From: a virus
Lineage: Duplodnaviria > Heunggongvirae > Uroviricota > Caudoviricetes
Strand: one strand, 5' to 3'
Virus record (IMG/VR): IMGVR_UViG_2703718800_000013
Location: 1-8,755 of that record
DNA: 8,755 bases
Shown: piece by piece, positions 1,025-8,572 of the stretch
How positions within the stretch are numbered: the stretch's first letter is position 1
Layout: every line of letters starts with the position of its first letter
Translations under genes and position numbers: made by a program
The notes under the pieces: model-generated
What the model was told of the DNA's origin: nothing
The model's input: the letters and a program-made list of their open reading frames with translations, nothing else
The model's database searches: none

Positions 1025-1572
1025 CCCTGACCCCGCATCAGCGCGCCCTGTTGCAGTTGCTGCCTGACGGGCTGGTATGGGATAAGCGGCCGTCATCCGT
1101 TCTTGCGGCTTTGTGCCTGGGCCTCAGTCATTCCACGGAGCGTGTTTCCTGGACCGGCAACCAGATGCTGGCAGAACGTTTTCCTGATTCATCCCGTCTG
1201 CTGCTGGAAGACTGGGAGCGTTATCTGGGGTTACCGGAATGTGATATGACCGGCGCAACCATTCAGGAGCGTCAGCGTTATGCCGGGAATAAATACCGGA
1301 TGAAACCCTCTCTTAACCGTGAATTTTATATCCGGTTTGCGGCAGAGTTTGGTTATGAAATAGATATCCAGCCATCACCGGAATCACAATGGATCAGTAT
1401 TGTGACAGTGAAGACAGCGGTTGGATACCGTCACATGAATGTACTGGACGATATTCTTACGCCACTGCGAATTTATGATGCAAGTGCGCTGGAGTGCATT
1501 TTAAACCGTTATAAGCCAGCCTGGCAGACGTTTTTATATCTGTACGAAAACAGTCATGAGGAGACGGAGTGA
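1015..1572 (+). CDS. Phage tail/baseplate protein, Mu gp48 / YmfQ-like (DUF2313 family)
   Basis: 185-aa ORF. Its ATG at 1015 overlaps the upstream stop (ATGGCTGTAA), suggesting translational coupling. Size and position between the baseplate J-like gene and the tail fibre match the Mu-type late operon. Confidence 0.6.
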   Translation: MAVTLTPHQRALLQLLPDGLVWDKRPSSVLAALCLGLSHSTERVSWTGNQMLAERFPDSSRLLLEDWERYLGLPECDMTGATIQERQRYAGNKYRMKPSLNREFYIRFAAEFGYEIDIQPSPESQWISIVTVKTAVGYRHMNVLDDILTPLRIYDASALECILNRYKPAWQTFLYLYENSHEETE

Positions 1573-2468
1573 TGTATTTTGTCGACAACAATTCAGGTGT
1601 GACCGATATGCCACCACTGGCCCCCTCACAGGGCACGCAGGTTAAATGGTTTACTGAAGGTGACGGACGCAAAGGGATCAGCCATATAGGTCAGGACTGG
1701 CTGAACATCGTGCAGGCAGAGCTGCTTGCCATTCTGACAGAAGGACAGGTTCAGCCGGATAAGGCAAAACTGAACCAGCTGGTGATAGCCATTAAGGCAA
1801 TCATTGCAGCAAACGCATACAGCCGGAAAAACAACCTTAAGGAGATTGCGGATGCAGGTGCAGAAGCACAGGCTGCTGCCCGCCGTCATCTTGGGCTTGG
1901 AGGATTATCAGGAAAAGACAGCCTGGCTGCTAATGATGTGGGAGCACTGGAGAAATCCATGAATTTTGGCGATGTACCGGATAAAACCTCGGCCCGCCAG
2001 AATCTGGATGTTTACAGCAAGAGCGAAGGTGATAACCGTTATCTGCGCAAGGATCAGAATGGCGCGGATATCGCGGACAAAGGAACCTTTATCGATAACG
2101 TCGGTTTACGGGAAACGGTAAATAAGGCGGCGAATGCCCTGCCATCGGACGGCACCGCTGCGGCAGCGAATAAACTCGCCACCCCAAGAAATATTAATGG
2201 TGTTCCTTTCGACGGGACGCAGGATATCAGCATTACTTCAGGGATGACGGAATCAACAGCCAATCAGCGTTATGTTACAGGGGTAAGACTGGGAGCGCAG
2301 GCATTAAGCGGCGGACTGGAATATAATTACTCCCTGTCATCAGGAAATGTGATTACCGGTTTTAAGACTGACGGAGACTGGGAAATGCGTAGTGGTGATG
2401 ACCGTGTTTATTACAGACAGATACAATATTGTATTAATGGGAATTGGGTATCCGCTGCAAGTATTTAA
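1569..2468 (+). CDS. Tail fibre protein (Mu S-like), current orientation; constant N-terminal part plus invertible C-terminal part
   Basis: 299-aa ORF. The likely start is ATG at 1572, preceded by GAGGAG at 1558-1563 (GTG at 1569 is the first in-frame start). The N-terminus (MYFVDNNSGVTDMPPL...WFTEGDG) resembles the conserved phage tail-fibre N-terminal domain. Codon GTC 2100-2102 carries the recombination core, and the C-terminal ~72 aa differ from the alternative cassette on the minus strand. Confidence 0.85.
   Translation: MMYFVDNNSGVTDMPPLAPSQGTQVKWFTEGDGRKGISHIGQDWLNIVQAELLAILTEGQVQPDKAKLNQLVIAIKAIIAANAYSRKNNLKEIADAGAEAQAAARRHLGLGGLSGKDSLAANDVGALEKSMNFGDVPDKTSARQNLDVYSKSEGDNRYLRKDQNGADIADKGTFIDNVGLRETVNKAANALPSDGTAAAANKLATPRNINGVPFDGTQDISITSGMTESTANQRYVTGVRLGAQALSGGLEYNYSLSSGNVITGFKTDGDWEMRSGDDRVYYRQIQYCINGNWVSAASI
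2089..2114. promoter_or_regulatory. Left crossover site for the DNA invertase (gix/hix-like 26-bp site)
   Basis: TTATCGATAACG-TC-GGTTTACGGGAA: two imperfect 12-bp half-sites around the core dinucleotide TC (2101-2102). It resembles recalled hix/gix sites, and inverted-repeat identity begins exactly at the core. Confidence 0.7.
2101..2249. repeat. Left arm of a perfect 149-bp inverted repeat flanking the invertible segment
   Basis: The reverse complement of 3379-3527 matches 2101-2249 in every block I compared by hand. The mirror-image ORFs in the track (2054..2263 minus and 3395..3580 plus share a 44-aa identical stretch) are a direct consequence. Confidence 0.95.
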
Positions 2469-2567
2469 TTAACGGCTCATGGCGTACGGCAGGCAGCGCC
2501 TGATATATGTGTTATCTCAGACAATCCCTGTCCGTATATAGCGATAGTATTATTCCTGTTTTTATCA

Positions 2568-3110
2568 TTGATTCACATGGTGATGTTTATGCAACTGATT
2601 AATGTTAAACGATATTACCCGGAAAACACCCTCTATGGTAATGATGTACAGTATTTTCAGAGTGAAGATGGTAAGGATTTCTACGAGTCCCTGCCATTAT
2701 TCACCAAAAAATATAAACTTTGTATAACACCTGACAGCGGCATTATCTGCTCAATATCACAGGACGCTTCGGCGCTGTATCCTGCGGGGTTCTCTGTGGT
2801 TGAAGTCGACGAACTCCCTGAAGGTGCTGATATTTCGGGTAACTGGAAGTTTGATAATGGCGTGATCTCCCGTATTCCGGTTAACTACGCAAGAAAACTG
2901 GAAGCAATGCGCCAGTTATATCTTAATCAGGCATATGAAAAAATTAATGACTGGAGAACAGAATTACAGCTGGGCACCATCAGTGATGAAGACAGAGCCG
3001 CACTTACCCGATGGATGGCATACATCAGTCAGGTGAAAAAAATGGAACCATCCGCCATTAAAACTGAAGCTGAATTTGATGCCATTAAATGGCCCGAACA
3101 GCCTGAATAA
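2568..3110 (+). CDS. Tail fibre assembly protein (Mu U / Tfa family chaperone)
   Basis: 180-aa ORF with several possible starts (TTG 2568; ATG 2577, 2583, 2589). Blocks SEDGKDFYE, DASALYPAGFSVVEV and a C-terminal WPEQPE match the recalled pattern of Mu U/Tfa proteins. Confidence 0.8.
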   Translation: MIHMVMFMQLINVKRYYPENTLYGNDVQYFQSEDGKDFYESLPLFTKKYKLCITPDSGIICSISQDASALYPAGFSVVEVDELPEGADISGNWKFDNGVISRIPVNYARKLEAMRQLYLNQAYEKINDWRTELQLGTISDEDRAALTRWMAYISQVKKMEPSAIKTEAEFDAIKWPEQPE

Positions 3111-3113
3111 CTT

Positions 3114-3143
3114 AAAGGGTGCTTATCGCACCCTTTTTCTTTC
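3114..3143. terminator. Intrinsic terminator between tfa and the minus-strand cassette, possibly bidirectional
   Basis: AAAGGGTGC (3114-3122), loop TTATC, GCACCCTTT (3128-3136), then TTTTTCTTTC on the + strand. It sits 3 bp after the tfa stop and ends just before the minus-strand cassette stop at 3145-3147. Confidence 0.6.
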
Positions 3144-3144
3144 A

Positions 3145-3527
3145 TCAGACAGATGAAACTGTACGCCATGCATTACTGATATATATCTGCACAGGACGGA
3201 AATAAACCCCGCCAATGTTATCGGCAGAGTTTTTTCCTGTTTCCTGCACGTTAATACCGGAAAGCATACAACCGGAAGGCGCACTGTAATTCCATGACAT
3301 TTCATTGCCTCCGGGTGAATGATAGCTCTGTGCTCCAAGCTGAACGTTCTGTACATACCGGTCATCTGCGGTTGACTGCGTCATCCCTGAAGTAATGCTG
3401 ATATCCTGCGTCCCGTCGAAAGGAACACCATTAATATTTCTTGGGGTGGCGAGTTTATTCGCTGCCGCAGCGGTGCCGTCCGATGGCAGGGCATTCGCCG
3501 CCTTATTTACCGTTTCCCGTAAACCGA
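3145..3527 (-). CDS. Alternative tail-fibre C-terminal cassette (Sv'-like), silent in this orientation
   Basis: The minus-strand frame is open from the core at 3526-3527 through the inverted repeat (encoding the same 49 aa as the + copy) into a distinct ~77-aa C-terminus (MTQSTADDRYVQNVQLGAQ...), which parallels the + copy (MTESTANQRYVTGVRLGAQ...). It has no start codon or RBS of its own at its 5' end. Confidence 0.75.
3379..3527. repeat. Right arm of the perfect 149-bp inverted repeat
   Basis: Reverse complement of 2101-2249. Confidence 0.95.
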
Positions 3528-3539
3528 GGTTTCAGGGAT
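3514..3539. promoter_or_regulatory. Right crossover site for the DNA invertase (gix/hix-like)
   Basis: TTCCCGTAAACC-GA-GGTTTCAGGGAT, with core GA (3526-3527) that is the inverse of the left-site core TC. The inner half-site equals the reverse complement of the left site's inner half-site. It lies directly upstream of the invertase gene, as gixR does relative to gin. Confidence 0.7.
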
Positions 3540-3593
3540 GCCGTATATCTGCTTTAAAAGGCCTTTCCACCTCTTTTTAAGGAAGGTAAATAC

Positions 3594-4154
3594 ATGCTGA
3601 TTGGCTATATACGCGTATCAACAAATGACCAGAACACAGGTTTACAAAGAAATGCGCTGGAATGTGCAGGATGTGAGCAGATTTTTGAAGATAAAATGAG
3701 CGGAAAAACAACACAGCGGCCGGGACTGAAGCGGGCACTGAAGAAACTAAAACCCGGTGACACGCTGATGGTCTGGAAACTGGACAGGCTGGGGCGCAGT
3801 ATGCGCCACCTTGTTGCGCTGACAGATGAATTACAGCAACAGGGGATAAATTTTCGTAGTCTTACTGACAGCATTGATACGTCAACCCCCATGGGGCGCT
3901 TCTTTTTTCACATAATGGGTGCGCTGGCAGAAATGGAGCGTGAATTGATTGTCGAACGGACACGGGCTGGTCTTGCAGCTGCCCGTGAAAGGGGACGAAC
4001 CGGCGGCAGACCCCGTCGTCTCACGCAGGAACAATACGAGCAGGTCGGGCGTTTACTGGCCGGGGGTGTCAGCCGAAGACAGGCGGCACTTATTTTTGAT
4101 ATCGGCCTTTCAACCCTTTATCGTTATTTTCCTGCGAGCGTTTCGGAAAAATAA
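3594..4154 (+). CDS. gin: Serine-recombinase DNA invertase (Gin/Pin/Cin/Hin family)
   Basis: 186-aa ORF with RBS AAGGAAGG upstream. The N-terminus MLIGYIRVSTNDQNT carries the catalytic Ser, and a C-terminal helix-turn-helix region is present. The protein is near-collinear with Mu Gin as I recall it, and its position next to the invertible segment fits. Confidence 0.95.
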   Translation: MLIGYIRVSTNDQNTGLQRNALECAGCEQIFEDKMSGKTTQRPGLKRALKKLKPGDTLMVWKLDRLGRSMRHLVALTDELQQQGINFRSLTDSIDTSTPMGRFFFHIMGALAEMERELIVERTRAGLAAARERGRTGGRPRRLTQEQYEQVGRLLAGGVSRRQAALIFDIGLSTLYRYFPASVSEK

Positions 4155-4244
4155 GACGCTCCCTTTGTTGGGCCTTTACTGAATTAACGCAAAATGGCGT
4201 TTATCGGTCTGTGGATATGATAATTCTGTTTATTCAGGAACAGG

Positions 4245-6326
4245 ATGAATATTATGACGTCCAAATGGGTTCAACTATCATCAATGCCCGGAAACTTTAC
4301 CGTTAAAGTTTCCGGTGGTACAGCGGCATTTCTTGAGGCTCCCTTTCCTCCGGCTGAAACGAAAGGAGGTATGACATTTGCTGACTGTCTCATCAGTTTT
4401 AATACACGGGATTGCCTGTGGGTAAGGCCAGTATCCGGTGATCCGAACGTGGAAATTACCGGAGCGGGTATTGGTGCTGTCATTCCGTTAAGTGCTGATG
4501 TTGCCGGTACTACTGAACCGTCAGACTGGAACAATGCGGAAACATACACTTCCTCAGCAGGAGATAAAGTTGCAGGTCAAACTCCGTCCTGGTATTACGT
4601 GGTTGTTATTGCTGGTCAGTCGAATGCATCGTCATTTGGTGAAGGTCTTCCTTTGCCTGATACCTATGATCGACCTGATCCACGTATTAAACAGCTGGCT
4701 CGCCGTAACACGGTTACACCTGGCGGGGTTGAATGCGCCTACAACGATATAATTCCGGCAGATCACTGTCTTCATGATGTGCTGGATATGAGTAACCATA
4801 ATCATCCAAAAGCAGATCTTTCAAAAGGTCAGTATGGTTGTGTCGGCCAGGGTTTGCATATTGCAAAAAAACTCCTGCCCTTTATCCCGGAAGAGGCTGG
4901 TATCCTTCTGGTTCCCTGTGCCAGAGGAGGCTCTGCATTTACCGATGGTGCTGATGGTGAATTTACTGAAGCTTCCGGAGCAACATCTGCATCATCGCGC
5001 TGGGGAGTCAATAAACCTTTGTTCAGCGATCTTGTTAACCGAACAAAAGCGGCTCTCAGCAGTAACCCCAGAAATATTCTCCTGTCCGTTGTCTGGATGC
5101 AGGGCGAGAATGATCTGAAAACAGGAAAACATGCTGAACATTCCGGTCTGTTTGTGACGATGGTCGAAACATTCAGGCGTGAACTTTCGGCTTTTTCTGC
5201 GCAATCTCCAGCCGGAGATATGGCTTCTGTACCGTGGATCTGTGGTGATACGACGTATTACTGGAAAAATACATATCCAGAACAATACAAAGCTGTTTAT
5301 GGCAAATATGCTAATGAAGCAAAGAACATTCACTTTGTTCCATTTGTTGTGGATGAAAATGGAAAAAATGTACCGACAAATAATCCAGATGAAGACCCGG
5401 ATATTCCAGGTATTGGCTATTATGGTGCCATAAGTCGCGATTCGACTAACTGGACATCAAACGACAGGGCAAGCCATTTCAGTTCATGGGCGCGCCGTGG
5501 AATTATTTCAGACCGTCTGGCAACAGCGATTCTGACATTGTCAGGACAAAAATCTGCTTTCTTCCGCGGTGTAACGGCAACAGAACATTCTGATACCGGT
5601 AAGAGTGAGCCTGAACCCACCGGGGATGTGAAGGACGTGAGCGATCAGATGAAGATCATCGTTTCGTATACTGCAAACGCCCCGACAGAACCAATGAAAG
5701 ATCAGGGGTGGAATGCGGCTTCCGGAAAAGCAACCTTTGTCACGGATGCTGCTGCAACAGGTGGTAACAAAGCGTTAAGGGTGAATAAAGCGCCTAACAG
5801 CATGGCCTCATGGAAAATGTATCATCCGATCACAGCTGATAATGCCAGGGATTTGTTCGCCAGAGGTGGTGATATTTCCCTCCGTTTCAAAATTCCATCG
5901 GATGCGGGCATTGCGGAAAACCGGTATGGTGTTGGTATTTACTGGGCTGTAAGTAACTGGCCTGACGGTGACGGAAAAAATAACCTCATCGCATCATGTT
6001 TCCTGCAAACGGATTCAGCTAACCTGAATGTGATGTATCACAAAGGGAGCGGAAGTCAACAGATAGGATCGTATGGTGTCTTTGATCATGAATGGCATAC
6101 GCTCTCGTTACGGTTTGCAGGTGGTAATAGCATGAGTGTTACCCCAGTTCTGGACGGGAAAGATGGTGAACCATTTGAACTTGTGAAGTGGGTGAATGCC
6201 GGGTTCACGGTGGATCAACTGACACTGACCGATATTACCGGCAATGCAGCCACTTACCCGATGTTGTTTGACACAATTAAAGTGCAGGTTAACGATGCGG
6301 TCTCTTCGTCTAATGTGAATAAATGA
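4245..6326 (+). CDS. SASA/SGNH-family carbohydrate esterase (sialate O-acetylesterase-like; NanS-p-like) with an N-terminal extension and a C-terminal lectin-like domain
   Basis: 693-aa ORF. The GQSN nucleophile motif is encoded at nt 4614-4625, a QGEND block at about 5099-5113, and a downstream D-x3-H (SNDRASHF) follows, the three signature blocks of SASA-type esterases. The ~250-aa C-terminal region looks like a beta-sandwich carbohydrate-binding domain (inference). An alternative start is ATG at 4254. Confidence 0.75.
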   Translation: MNIMTSKWVQLSSMPGNFTVKVSGGTAAFLEAPFPPAETKGGMTFADCLISFNTRDCLWVRPVSGDPNVEITGAGIGAVIPLSADVAGTTEPSDWNNAETYTSSAGDKVAGQTPSWYYVVVIAGQSNASSFGEGLPLPDTYDRPDPRIKQLARRNTVTPGGVECAYNDIIPADHCLHDVLDMSNHNHPKADLSKGQYGCVGQGLHIAKKLLPFIPEEAGILLVPCARGGSAFTDGADGEFTEASGATSASSRWGVNKPLFSDLVNRTKAALSSNPRNILLSVVWMQGENDLKTGKHAEHSGLFVTMVETFRRELSAFSAQSPAGDMASVPWICGDTTYYWKNTYPEQYKAVYGKYANEAKNIHFVPFVVDENGKNVPTNNPDEDPDIPGIGYYGAISRDSTNWTSNDRASHFSSWARRGIISDRLATAILTLSGQKSAFFRGVTATEHSDTGKSEPEPTGDVKDVSDQMKIIVSYTANAPTEPMKDQGWNAASGKATFVTDAAATGGNKALRVNKAPNSMASWKMYHPITADNARDLFARGGDISLRFKIPSDAGIAENRYGVGIYWAVSNWPDGDGKNNLIASCFLQTDSANLNVMYHKGSGSQQIGSYGVFDHEWHTLSLRFAGGNSMSVTPVLDGKDGEPFELVKWVNAGFTVDQLTLTDITGNAATYPMLFDTIKVQVNDAVSSSNVNK

Positions 6327-6576: not shown

Positions 6577-6822
6577 ATGCCAGAGATTAAAGGCACGGTT
6601 ACTGAAGAGCTTGTCAAACAGGCACTTTATTCTGAAGAAGTGAACCGCGTGCTGAAGGCGCAGGTTCGCAAGGATTTTGAGGCACAAATCGACGCATATG
6701 TTGATGAAGTGCTGGCCCGAATGGTTGGCCATTCTCCGGCTGAAAACAGCACGGAGAATGAGCCTCAGCCCGTAGAGCAACCAGAGCCGGTTCAGCCCGG
6801 AACTGACAGTGCCATGATGTAA
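6577..6822 (+). CDS. Hypothetical small acidic protein
   Basis: 81-aa ORF with a strong RBS (AAAGGAAAGGAGA, 7 nt before the ATG). It has a helical-looking N-terminal half and a Pro/Glu-rich tail. I do not recognise a family. Confidence 0.55.
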   Translation: MPEIKGTVTEELVKQALYSEEVNRVLKAQVRKDFEAQIDAYVDEVLARMVGHSPAENSTENEPQPVEQPEPVQPGTDSAMM

Positions 6823-7380: not shown

Positions 7381-7417
7381 ACCCAGCATAGTTCCAGCTA
7401 TGCTGGGTTTCCCTTTT
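7381..7417 (+). terminator. Rho-independent terminator (+ strand)
   Basis: Perfect 11-bp stem ACCCAGCATAG (7381-7391) / CTATGCTGGGT (7398-7408) with loop TTCCAG, followed by TTCCCTTTTAT. Confidence 0.55.
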
Positions 7418-7640
7418 ATGTAGTATCCTGTTGATTTGAAACATACTACATATACGCGCGATCCTACCTTCACTGGATAAAAAGGCAATAAAATGATCAT
7501 TTTATGATCGTTTTCACCACCTAACTCTTCGTTTTCTTTAAGTAAATAATCACCGCCCTGAATCATTGTTGATGACTTTTCAATCTATTTGTTGTATCAA
7601 TTAAACAAATCGAATCGATCGTTTTTGTCGATCGATTGCA
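7418..7640. promoter_or_regulatory. Candidate com-mom regulatory region with palindromes and clustered GATC sites
   Basis: A 9-bp inverted repeat ATGTAGTAT (7418-7426) / ATACTACAT (7443-7451). Five GATC sites at 7460, 7495, 7506, 7617 and 7630. A second palindrome AATCGATCG (7612-7620) / CGATCGATT (7628-7636) embeds two of them. A weak possible promoter is ATGACT (7573-7578), 16 bp, TATCAA (7595-7600). Confidence 0.4.
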
Positions 7641-7680: not shown

Positions 7681-7881
7681 ATGTATCGAAACATACGGTG
7701 CCGACACTGCAATAAGCTACTGGCACGGGCCAGTTTCAGTTATCTGGAAGTAAAATGTCCGCGCTGTAAAACCCTCAATCAAATCACATCTCCGAGCGCC
7801 ACAGAGCACCCCACATACACAAGGAAATCCTGTCGTGGGGAACAGAAAGCAAGTCACATCCCGTATCATCAGCACGCCTGA
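7681..7881 (+). CDS. com: Com, zinc-finger translational activator of mom
   Basis: 66-aa product [14 protein letters not shown]...KCPRCK with CxxC-x15-CxxC spacing like Mu Com. AGGAGG at 7665-7670 precedes the ATG at 7681; the track start at 7636 lacks an RBS. The 3' end overlaps the mom start. Confidence 0.8.
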
Positions 7882-8572
7882 ACTTATTCGCTATAACGAC
7901 AATATCGTTGGTTATGGCTCCCGTGAGTTGCGGGTTGAGACAATAAGTTGCTGGCTGGCCAGACTGGTCATCGTCAATAAACATTACAGCCACCGTTTCG
8001 TAAATAACTCCTACCTTCATCTGGGCATATTTTCAGAACGGGAACTTGTTGGCGTAATGCAATGGGGTTACGCCCTTAACCCAAACAGTGGTGCACGCGT
8101 CGTAACGGGTACGCAGAACCGAGAATATATGGAGCTTAACCGGCTATGGCTGCATGACTGTATGCCGAGAAACTCCGAATCAAGGGCAATCAGTTACGCG
8201 CTCAAGCTAATCAGGCAGCTTTATCCGCAGGTACAGTGGGTTCAGTCGTTTGCAGATGAGCGTTGTGGCTGTCTTGGTGTCGTGTATCAGGCAAGCAATT
8301 TTGATTATGTAGGCAGCCATGAAACAATATTCTATGAACTTGATGGCGAGTGGTATCACGAGATTTGCAGGAATGCCATTAAACGAGGCGGACAACGAGG
8401 TGAACATCTGAGGGCTAATATCGACAGAGCCAGTGTGCATAAGTTCCGACAGTTTCGTTACATCCGGTTTCTGAACAAGAGGGCCAGAAAACGCCTCAAC
8501 ACAAAGCTATTCAAAGTCCAGCCTTACCCAAAACCACAAACAGTTAAAACTGGTTTGAAAGAGAGTGAATGA
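7835..8572 (+). CDS. mom: Mom, DNA modification (adenine carbamoylmethylation) anti-restriction protein
   Basis: 245-aa ORF starting at GTG 7835, inside the 3' end of com in another frame; this is the com-mom arrangement of Mu. Its size and its position at the phage right end fit. The exact start codon is uncertain. Confidence 0.8.

Follow-up and report, generated by a model that had tools for sequence, protein, structure and literature searches.

Organization of the Tail Fiber Locus

The window, meaning the whole 8755-nt stretch of DNA analyzed here, corresponds to the right end of a Mu-like prophage, encoding Baseplate_J, Mu Gp48, a tail fiber, Caudo_TAP, a Resolvase domain combined with HTH_7, Com, and Mom. 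The tail fiber ORF occupies positions 1569–2468 and was assigned to the PHROG 1833 tail fiber protein (E 2e-119). Its constant N-terminal part, Sc (1572–2100, plus strand, with an alternative GTG start at 1569), lies outside the invertible segment, which extends from core to core over 1427 bp (2101–3527) and contains two opposite, in-frame 3′ parts of the gene, as expected of a host-range segment such as Mu G, P1 C, or e14 P. The tip expressed in the window orientation, Sv (2250–2468, plus strand), shares 60% identity with the tip at the C terminus of Mu S. The alternative tip, Sv′ (3145–3378, minus strand), is silent in this orientation, continues in frame from the right repeat arm, and shares 56–60% identity with P2 H-type fiber tips and SfMu; the identity between Sv and Sv′ is 36%. 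In RefSeq, the silent cassette is labeled a pseudogene.

Inverting the segment in silico produced an alternative fiber gene of 912 nt encoding 303 aa, the same length as annotated in inverted relatives. Both Sc junctions are in frame, and the resulting 298-aa and 303-aa fibers, both matching PHROG 1833, are each annotated in relatives. The segment also carries a tail fiber assembly (chaperone) gene, tfa (2589–3110, plus strand; Pfam Caudo_TAP, E 4e-19; PHROG 136), and a terminator-like hairpin (3114–3136, plus strand), consisting of a 9-pair stem followed by a T run, separates the 3′ end of tfa from that of Sv′.

A Gin-Family Invertase and a Putative Enhancer

A gene at 3594–4154 (plus strand) encodes a 186-aa serine DNA invertase of the Gin/Cin/Hin family (Pfam Resolvase, E 3e-51; HTH_7, E 8e-14), which combines the N-terminal catalytic serine domain and C-terminal helix-turn-helix of small serine recombinases. 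The protein matched the Gin structures 3UJ3 and 4M6F with an E-value of 8e-91, is 73–75% identical to Mu Gin, and its C-terminal domain matched Hin's DNA-binding domain (1HCR). The catalytic Ser9 is present, and the positions Y5, R7, D64, R65, and R68 are identical to Gin in the alignment. Residues specific to Fis- and enhancer-dependent invertases have been described in Hin as K47, R48, K51, Q151, R154, and L155 (PMC3798978). The window invertase carries K46, R47, K50, Q150, R153, and L154 at those positions, in the register given by the 1HCR alignment. Its ORF is full length, and the protein is 98–100% identical to those of relatives.

The Hin, Gin, and Cin enhancers carry two Fis sites in cis, spaced 48 bp apart. 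A stretch at 3612–3683 (plus strand; gene nt 19–90) is homologous to the recombinational enhancer annotated within cin in the P1 record. It shares 83% nucleotide identity with cin, and codons for the same amino acid were identical to those of cin in 14 out of 20 cases within this stretch versus 27 out of 79 over the remainder of the gene. The comparison with cin and gin provides only modest support for an enhancer, suggesting that 3612–3683 could act as one. A degenerate-consensus scan of the invertase gene revealed no Fis sites clearly paired at a spacing of 48 bp; one 15-mer matching the Fis consensus perfectly (gene nt 94–108) occurs both in the window and in Mu, outside the P1-enhancer-homologous stretch and with no partner 48 bp away. 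In relatives that still invert, the enhancer-homologous stretch contains 11 mostly synonymous changes. Synonymous-site conservation across invertase genes of the Sp18 family was also considered as an enhancer test and set aside, the genes being too similar to inform it.

The Inverted Repeat and the Crossover Sites

Gapless alignment of positions 2060–2300 with the reverse complement of 3328–3568 yielded a longest perfect run of 149 nt, formed by the left arm at 2101–2249 (plus strand) and the right arm at 3379–3527 (minus strand), which are inverted relative to each other with 0 mismatches. This confirms by exact alignment what an earlier note on this DNA had claimed from comparing the arms block by block. 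Identity begins at the first base of the TC/GA core dinucleotide of both 26-bp sites, as had been proposed. On the outer side it ends at 2100/3528, and on the inner side it fades as far as approximately 2300/3328; an independent repeat search delimited an inverted repeat of 179 nt at 95% identity (2097–2275/3353–3531). The arms are coding: translation produced the same 49 residues in frame in either orientation, a conserved stretch of the fiber shaft (GLRETVNKAANALPSDGTAAAANKLATPRNINGVPFDGTQDISITSGMT). The crossover falls inside a Val codon, GTC at 2100–2102, which is residue 178 when counted from the GTG at 1569, in agreement with the earlier note, and residue 177 when counted from the ATG at 1572, the start used by RefSeq in relatives.

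The left, gixL-like crossover site (2089–2114, plus strand) reads TTATCGATAACG TC GGTTTACGGGAA, with its core TC at 2101–2102 inside this codon, and the right, gixR-like site (3514–3539, minus strand) reads ATCCCTGAAACC TC GGTTTACGGGAA on the minus strand. Two imperfectly palindromic 26-bp sites in inverted arrangement with an identical 2-bp core are a feature of Gin/Hin/Cin/Pin systems. In a comparison with site sequences taken from the annotated Mu and P1 genome records, agreement with Mu gix reached 22 out of 26 positions for the left site and 20 out of 26 for the right one. Half-site symmetry, which the earlier note had named as a check on the assignment, amounts to 7/12 in the left site and 9/12 in the right one, compared with 7/12 in Mu gix and 8/12 in P1 cix. 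The left site occupies the same position in the fiber gene as Mu gix, the homologous codons encoding NLGLQETV in Mu and NVGLRETV in the window. We retain the note's site assignment and take both sites, of the gix/cix type, to belong to a working invertase switch exchanging tail fiber C-termini, the orientation evidence coming from relatives.

The 14-mer TCGGTTTACGGGAA occurs without mismatches exactly twice in the window; allowing up to 3 mismatches, it matched 5 times versus 0.66 expected, a count reached in 0 out of 200 shuffles. A genome contig scan with a 19-mer of the right site returned only 3 matches, in unrelated taxa, which is about the estimated chance number. In all 16 related loci, both sites are conserved and the arms drift. 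The outer half of the right site is variable among relatives (ATCCCTGAAACC, TCCCTGAAAACC, or TTCCTGAAAACC), and the left outer half-site of the window ends in AACG, as opposed to AACC in the family.

Natural Inversion among Relatives

When inverted in silico at 2101/3527, the window became colinear with the related locus L001 over 7250 bp. Inverting L002 at the core reproduced L003 with 0 mismatches in 5752 bp, and inverting L007 reproduced L016 with 0 mismatches in 5050 bp. In the latter pair, shifting the crossover by −1 or +14 nt created mismatches, so the exchange took place within 13 nt (TCGGTTTACGGGA) starting at the core. The L007/L016 crossover is confined to this stretch although the arms are only ~76% identical, with 36 mismatches. 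Together with the clean inversion of the L002/L003 pair, this places strand exchange in relatives at the site core rather than in general homology.

The predicted recombinant junction was found at ≥99% identity in 153 E. coli records, and close relatives of the window are known in both orientations; its nearest relatives (97–99%) are found in non-O157 strains. The Sc–Sv′ junction is present in 186 records and the Sc–Sv junction in 11; as the Sv cassettes vary from one relative to another, these counts do not give a clean ratio of orientations. The L002/L003 and L007/L016 pairs share the left site of the window, including the same non-consensus G. A divergence break at the left core, which would have pointed to cassette exchange, was also considered and rejected: the differences between the window and L002 are concentrated at 300–700 and 3605–3647 instead.

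Overall, we are confident that the repeats delimit the invertible segment for host range in a Mu-like E. coli prophage of the Sp18 type, operated by a Gin-family switch, and that the perfection of the arms does not stem from the invertase. The system is an ordinary flip-switch of the Gin/Cin type that swaps the tail fiber tip and belongs to a known kind. In the mechanism that we propose, the invertase (3594–4154) would bind both 26-bp sites, probably joined by host Fis bound to an enhancer at the 5′ end of the gene that encodes the enzyme, judging from Gin, Hin, and Cin; by the same token, the reaction would depend on Fis and the enhancer and, as in these systems, on negative supercoiling. Both sites would then be cut at the TC/GA core, one half-complex would be rotated by 180 degrees, and religation would leave 2101–3527 flipped. 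In the window orientation, Sc is fused to the Mu-S-like Sv, followed by tfa, and in the opposite orientation, Sc is read in frame with the P2-H-like Sv′. Such an exchange of tips would be expected to change the host range. The prophage family carrying this switch is widespread in E. coli, including STEC, which bears on host-range prediction and, given the pseudogene label of the silent cassette, on annotation.

Origin of the Perfect Arms

We fetched 16 related loci and compared 15 of them over the same 149 nt. The arms differ in 15 out of 15 loci, at 3–37 of the 149 positions, and form patchy mosaics in which two haplotypes are combined as G/G, T/T, or G/T. Compared with its closest relatives, the window has Sv′-arm bases in its Sv arm at arm positions 86, 87, 98, 99, 129, and 138. 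The differences between arms are mostly synonymous; in L008, for example, 37 nt differ but only 9 aa.

The earlier note had interpreted the perfect arms, identical up to the core, as the footprint of repeated inversion that keeps homogenizing them, and had argued from this that the switch is active. The arms are indeed perfect from the core onward, and those of P1, an active switch, are likewise perfect. However, relatives whose arms differ at 3–37 positions have inverted too, including L007/L016 with 36 mismatches. In serine recombination, strand exchange is restricted to the 2-bp core and no heteroduplex forms in the arms, so the invertase cannot homogenize them. The haplotypes of L002 and L003 point the same way: the Sv and Sv′ arms each keep their own haplotype and travel with their cassette through inversions. 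This part of the note is not supported, and we find homogenization by the invertase scarcely credible. The perfect arms are a lineage-specific quirk and constitute no proof of activity. Equally hard to believe is that they were created during assembly or polishing from a mixed-orientation culture by merging reads of the two arms. One can reason that flank-anchored short reads derive from both arms and leave the outer arm unphaseable; nevertheless, the nearest relatives differ at positions (arm 86–138) that are 11–63 nt away from the unique inner ends, a distance that reads anchored in Sv or Sv′ can span, and several complete genomes resolve differing arms.

Two further explanations concern the switch rather than the arms. 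Inversion of the window could proceed mainly through RecA-dependent homologous recombination between the 149-bp repeats, the gix-like sites being relics. The length of perfect identity is sufficient for RecA-mediated exchange, and perfect arms hide the crossover position in the sequence, but we judge this route very unlikely: in relatives, the crossover lies in 13 nt at the site despite ~76% homology over the remaining arm, the intact invertase gene retains the catalytic Ser9, and both sites are conserved in 16/16 loci with drifting arms. It is also unlikely that the switch in this one copy has recently become a fossil whose parts are intact but no longer invert, for example, owing to poor expression or to the non-consensus G beside the left core. 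The orientation evidence does come from relatives and not from the source strain, and, according to a proposal by the authors of the SfMu study, inversion could be reduced or abolished by a change adjoining the central bases (PMC4406740). On the other hand, L002/L003 and L007/L016 inverted with the same left site carrying the same G, and the invertase of the window has a full-length ORF and is 98–100% identical to the proteins of relatives.

The perfect identity of the arms, together with their mosaic haplotypes, appears to be best explained by gene conversion or homologous recombination. The 149-bp arms represent two copies of a conserved shaft coding stretch, one for each tip cassette, and it is mainly the protein sequence that keeps them similar. 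The perfect match would have arisen through recent gene conversion or homologous recombination, either between the two arms or between co-resident prophages in opposite orientations. Identity stops at the core, since the sequence outside it never moves, being fiber coding sequence on one side and the leader of the invertase gene on the other. Recombination between prophages would leave the same haplotype mosaic as gene conversion. A more speculative idea, on balance doubtful, is that the arms form a gene-conversion hot spot by which fiber shafts are reshuffled between cassettes. Perfect inverted repeats are no readout of invertase activity, whereas orientation polymorphism among near-identical genomes is.

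A Single Tail Fiber Assembly Gene

The tfa product shares 32–34% identity with the Mu proteins U and U′ and with a tail fiber assembly protein of the P2 type. It is the sole assembly gene of the segment: no minus-strand ORF of at least 50 aa was found between 2469 and 3122, and 16 out of 16 relatives also carry one tfa per segment. The segment therefore departs from the layout in which each tip is followed by its own assembly gene (U, U′). The missing second tfa is a difference of cargo, not of the switch itself.

In one of the two segment orientations, tfa is antisense. A sigma-70 scan for an orientation-independent tfa promoter remained at chance level (6 found versus 4.7 expected), and a search for a tfa promoter using the Pmom region detected no meaningful similarity. 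The candidate promoter at 2398–2427 was discarded, as it is not conserved across cassette types. We tentatively suggest, as a reading that we hold to be possible but on balance doubtful, that the Sp18-type segment is an asymmetric, one-chaperone version of the Mu/P1 switch, in which Sv would be co-transcribed with tfa and Sv′ would be expressed with the only tfa gene antisense to the late transcript. If this asymmetry is functional, Sv′ could fold without a cis-encoded chaperone, or tfa could be driven by a promoter independent of orientation, or particles of the second orientation could need the chaperone of another prophage or be non-infectious. In the last of these three cases, the switch would be partly of an ON/OFF type. 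The single-chaperone layout, kept across many genomes, poses a small question about tail fiber assembly.

Comparison with Known Invertible Segments

The G segment of Mu follows the same order of baseplate gp47, gp48, S, invertase, com, and mom. The likeness extends to the invertase (73–75%), the sites (22/26 and 20/26, at homologous codons), and the Sv tip (60% to the Mu S tip). In Mu, however, the inverted repeat measures 34 bp and includes both half-sites, whereas that of the window extends for 149 bp from the core, with outer half-sites unlike each other. The Mu segment is ~3 kb long and arranged as S-U-U′-S′, compared with 1.4 kb, one tfa, and much shorter fibers (298 and 303 aa) in the window. 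Also unlike Mu, the window carries a 693-aa DUF6645/SASA gene, a DUF1378 ORF (annotated in relatives), and a DUF826 gene between the invertase and com/mom.

The repeat anatomy is identical to that of the C segment of P1 (and P7), with its invertase Cin and sites cixL/cixR. The P1 arms are perfect for 559 bp from the cix core, the outer half-sites differ (CAATCCTAAACC versus TTATCCAATACC), and the enhancer annotation lies at the 5′ end of cin. P1 differs from the window in its core (TT versus TC), the length of the arms (~0.6 kb versus 149 bp), the number of chaperone genes (two, U and U′, versus one), and the placement of cin, which lies on the other side of the segment relative to the fiber gene.

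Salmonella Hin/hix represents the same invertase family, with the Fis- and enhancer-contact residues conserved in the window protein and with 26-bp sites and a 2-bp core in both systems; Hin flips a promoter, whereas the window switch exchanges the coding 3′ ends of a gene.

The window shares the order Sc–Sv–tfa–Sv′ (inverted)–invertase–DUF6645 with Sp18, a Mu-like prophage carried by E. coli O157:H7 Sakai, and with the relatives of Sp18, at ~82% DNA identity between Sp18 and the window over 1500–4250, and the Sp18 region has already been called invertible (PMC2669165). The arms of O157-type loci are 75–85% identical, not perfect as in the window, and some of these loci carry other Sv cassettes.

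Crossover Sites and Inverted Repeats

The Mu-like prophage in the window, a member of the Sp18 family, carries a tail-fibre inversion switch of the Gin/Cin type (Gin and Cin being the invertases of phages Mu and P1). Gapless comparison of 2060–2300 with the reverse complement of 3328–3568 gave an unbroken perfect run of 149 nt (2101–2249 versus 3379–3527) starting at TC, which bears out the earlier note's description of perfect 149-bp arms with identity from the core. A repeat search reported the same feature as a 179-nt inverted repeat with 95% identity. Outward, identity ends exactly at 2100/3528; inward, it decays to ~2300/3328.

The repeat begins at the TC of each 26-bp site: TTATCGATAACG TC GGTTTACGGGAA on the left (2089–2114) and, read as the reverse complement, ATCCCTGAAACC TC GGTTTACGGGAA on the right (3514–3539). 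The Mu site gix, TTATCCAAAACC TC GGTTTACAGGAA, is matched by the two at 22/26 and 20/26 positions, and lies at homologous codons of the Mu fibre gene. The 14-mer common to both sites has exactly two mismatch-free copies in the window; with up to three mismatches allowed, five matches are present where 0.66 would be expected, a count that none of the shuffles attained.

The coding claims also held: the two arms code in frame for an identical 49-residue stretch, and 2100–2102 is a Val codon, residue 178 counted from GTG 1569 or 177 from ATG 1572. Position 2100, just outside the left core, varies among relatives (compared at the same place in L001, L004, L005 and L008–L010), being G, C or A and giving Val, Leu or Ile; since G-bearing pairs have demonstrably inverted, a change directly beside the core is tolerated.

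Natural Inversion among Related Prophages

We compared related prophage loci after inverting them in silico at the core. Locus L002, from a pig in Sichuan, then equals L003, from a human in Guangxi, with 0 mismatches over 5752 bp. Two bovine isolates from Okinawa (L007 and L016) become identical across 5050 bp once L007 is inverted in the same way. Mismatches appear if the crossover is placed −1 or +14 nt from the assumed point, so the exchange in the bovine pair was confined to TCGGTTTACGGGA; as this held despite differences at 36 of the 149 arm positions, general homologous recombination was excluded as the route in that pair. The predicted recombinant junction occurs at ≥99% identity in 153 E. 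coli records, and both orientations are found among the window's close relatives (database relatives H1–H4 versus H24 and H25). The switch is thus real and site-specific and, judging from the sequences compared, active on evolutionary timescales.

In the O157-type clade of the E. coli genome collection, the junction of the constant fibre part (Sc) with the alternative tip Sv' was present in 186 records, versus 11 for Sc–Sv of the same cassette type. These counts may reflect an orientation bias in lysogen assemblies, but Sv cassette diversity confounds the comparison.

Origin of Arm Identity

The earlier note took the perfect arms as a footprint of repeated inversion and hence of an active switch, but this argument is unsound. 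The same 149 nt carry 3–37 differences in the 15 related loci compared and none in the window only, and the bovine pair inverted with 36. By the established mechanism, invertase exchanges strands at the 2-bp core only, and each arm moves along with its cassette; the reaction therefore cannot homogenise the arms. Beyond the core lie flanks that stay in place through inversion and are unrelated to each other, which is why identity ends there.

Only the core and inner half-site are invariant across the compared loci. The arms combine two haplotypes in mosaic fashion, all combinations being seen in different genomes, and their differences are mostly synonymous (in L008, for example, 37 nt differ but 9 aa), which indicates a duplicated, protein-constrained piece of the fibre shaft with patchy conversion or recombination. 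At 6/6 positions where the arms of the nearest relatives differ, the Sv arm of the window has the bases of the Sv' arm, a pattern that fits one recent conversion tract.

Invertase and Enhancer-like Stretch

The recombinase (3594–4154; Resolvase and HTH_7 domains) matches Gin crystal-structure sequences with an E-value of 8e-91 and is 73–75% identical to Gin, and Ser9 is present. Residues K47, R48, K51, Q151, R154 and L155 of the Salmonella invertase Hin are reported to be uniquely conserved in Fis/enhancer-dependent invertases (PMC3798978); their counterparts here are K46, R47, K50, Q150, R153 and L154.

The P1 record annotates an enhancer at cin nt 19–90. The homologous stretch, a putative enhancer at 3612–3683, is 83% identical to cin, and identical codons make up 14/20 of its same-amino-acid codons versus 27/79 in the rest of the gene. 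A search for a pair of Fis sites at the expected spacing identified none. In L002 and L003, which do invert, the 5' end of the invertase gene has 11 mostly synonymous changes (window positions 3605–3647), in and adjoining this stretch; these form a mosaic patch that matches the allele found in L014 and L015, which are more distantly related.

A Single Assembly Gene for Two Tips

The invertible segment contains one tail-fibre assembly gene (tfa, Caudo_TAP; 2589–3110), a layout kept in 16/16 relatives inspected. The Sv tip (2250–2468) is 60% identical to the Mu S tip, and the Sv' tip (3145–3378, minus strand) shares 56–60% identity with tips of the P2 H type and of SfMu. In Mu and a P2-type phage, unlike the window, each homologous tip has its own chaperone gene downstream. 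Mu U, Mu U' and a P2-type tail fibre assembly protein lie at roughly the same distance from Tfa. In the Sv' orientation, tfa is antisense to the late fibre transcript; a search for a conserved tfa promoter found none. A terminator-like hairpin (3114–3136) lies between the convergent 3' ends.

Gene Context

The window corresponds to the right end of a Mu-like prophage. In the databases, its closest relatives (97–99% identity) are prophages on E. coli chromosomes, while further relatives at ~82% form a large clade that includes O157:H7 strains. Genes for Baseplate_J (29–1024), Mu Gp48 (1015–1572) and the tail fibre (1572–2468) precede tfa, the silent alternative fibre 3' end (3145–3527, minus strand) and the invertase; a DUF6645/SASA gene (4245–6326), DUF826 (6577–6822), Com (7681–7881) and Mom (7835–8572) follow. 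In L001–L016, RefSeq lists the silent cassette as a pseudogene with a "missing N-terminus"; in inverted copies it also reports a hypothetical protein from a 61-aa ORF lying antisense to the arm (window 3395–3580, plus strand). Both calls arise as annotation side-effects from the segment being invertible.

The DUF6645/SASA gene, between the invertase and com/mom, encodes 693 aa with SASA (sialate O-acetylesterase-like) and DUF6645 domains. It is kept in Sp18-type prophages, belongs to PHROG 143 (function unknown), and may represent a moron, a cargo gene whose product would act on surface carbohydrate. Upstream of com/mom, 7613–7636 reads ATCGATCG-N8-CGATCGAT, resembling the GATC cluster that precedes mom in Mu. 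Relative to its closest relative, L002, the window lacks ~72 bp (L002 11883–11956) at 7381/7382, between the DUF826 gene and com. Beyond 8700 the window is no longer similar to L002, the flanking host DNA being different; ~8700 is probably the prophage right end, at a chromosomal insertion site other than that of L002, as expected of a transposing phage.

Comparison with Known Switches

The gene order matches that of Mu, including the com–mom overlap, except that Mu has nothing at the place of the DUF6645/SASA gene. Phage P1 has the same repeat anatomy as the window, with perfect 559-bp arms starting from the core of its cix sites and unlike outer half-sites. The repeat pattern is thus textbook rather than new, and the element represents a further example of an already known switch type.
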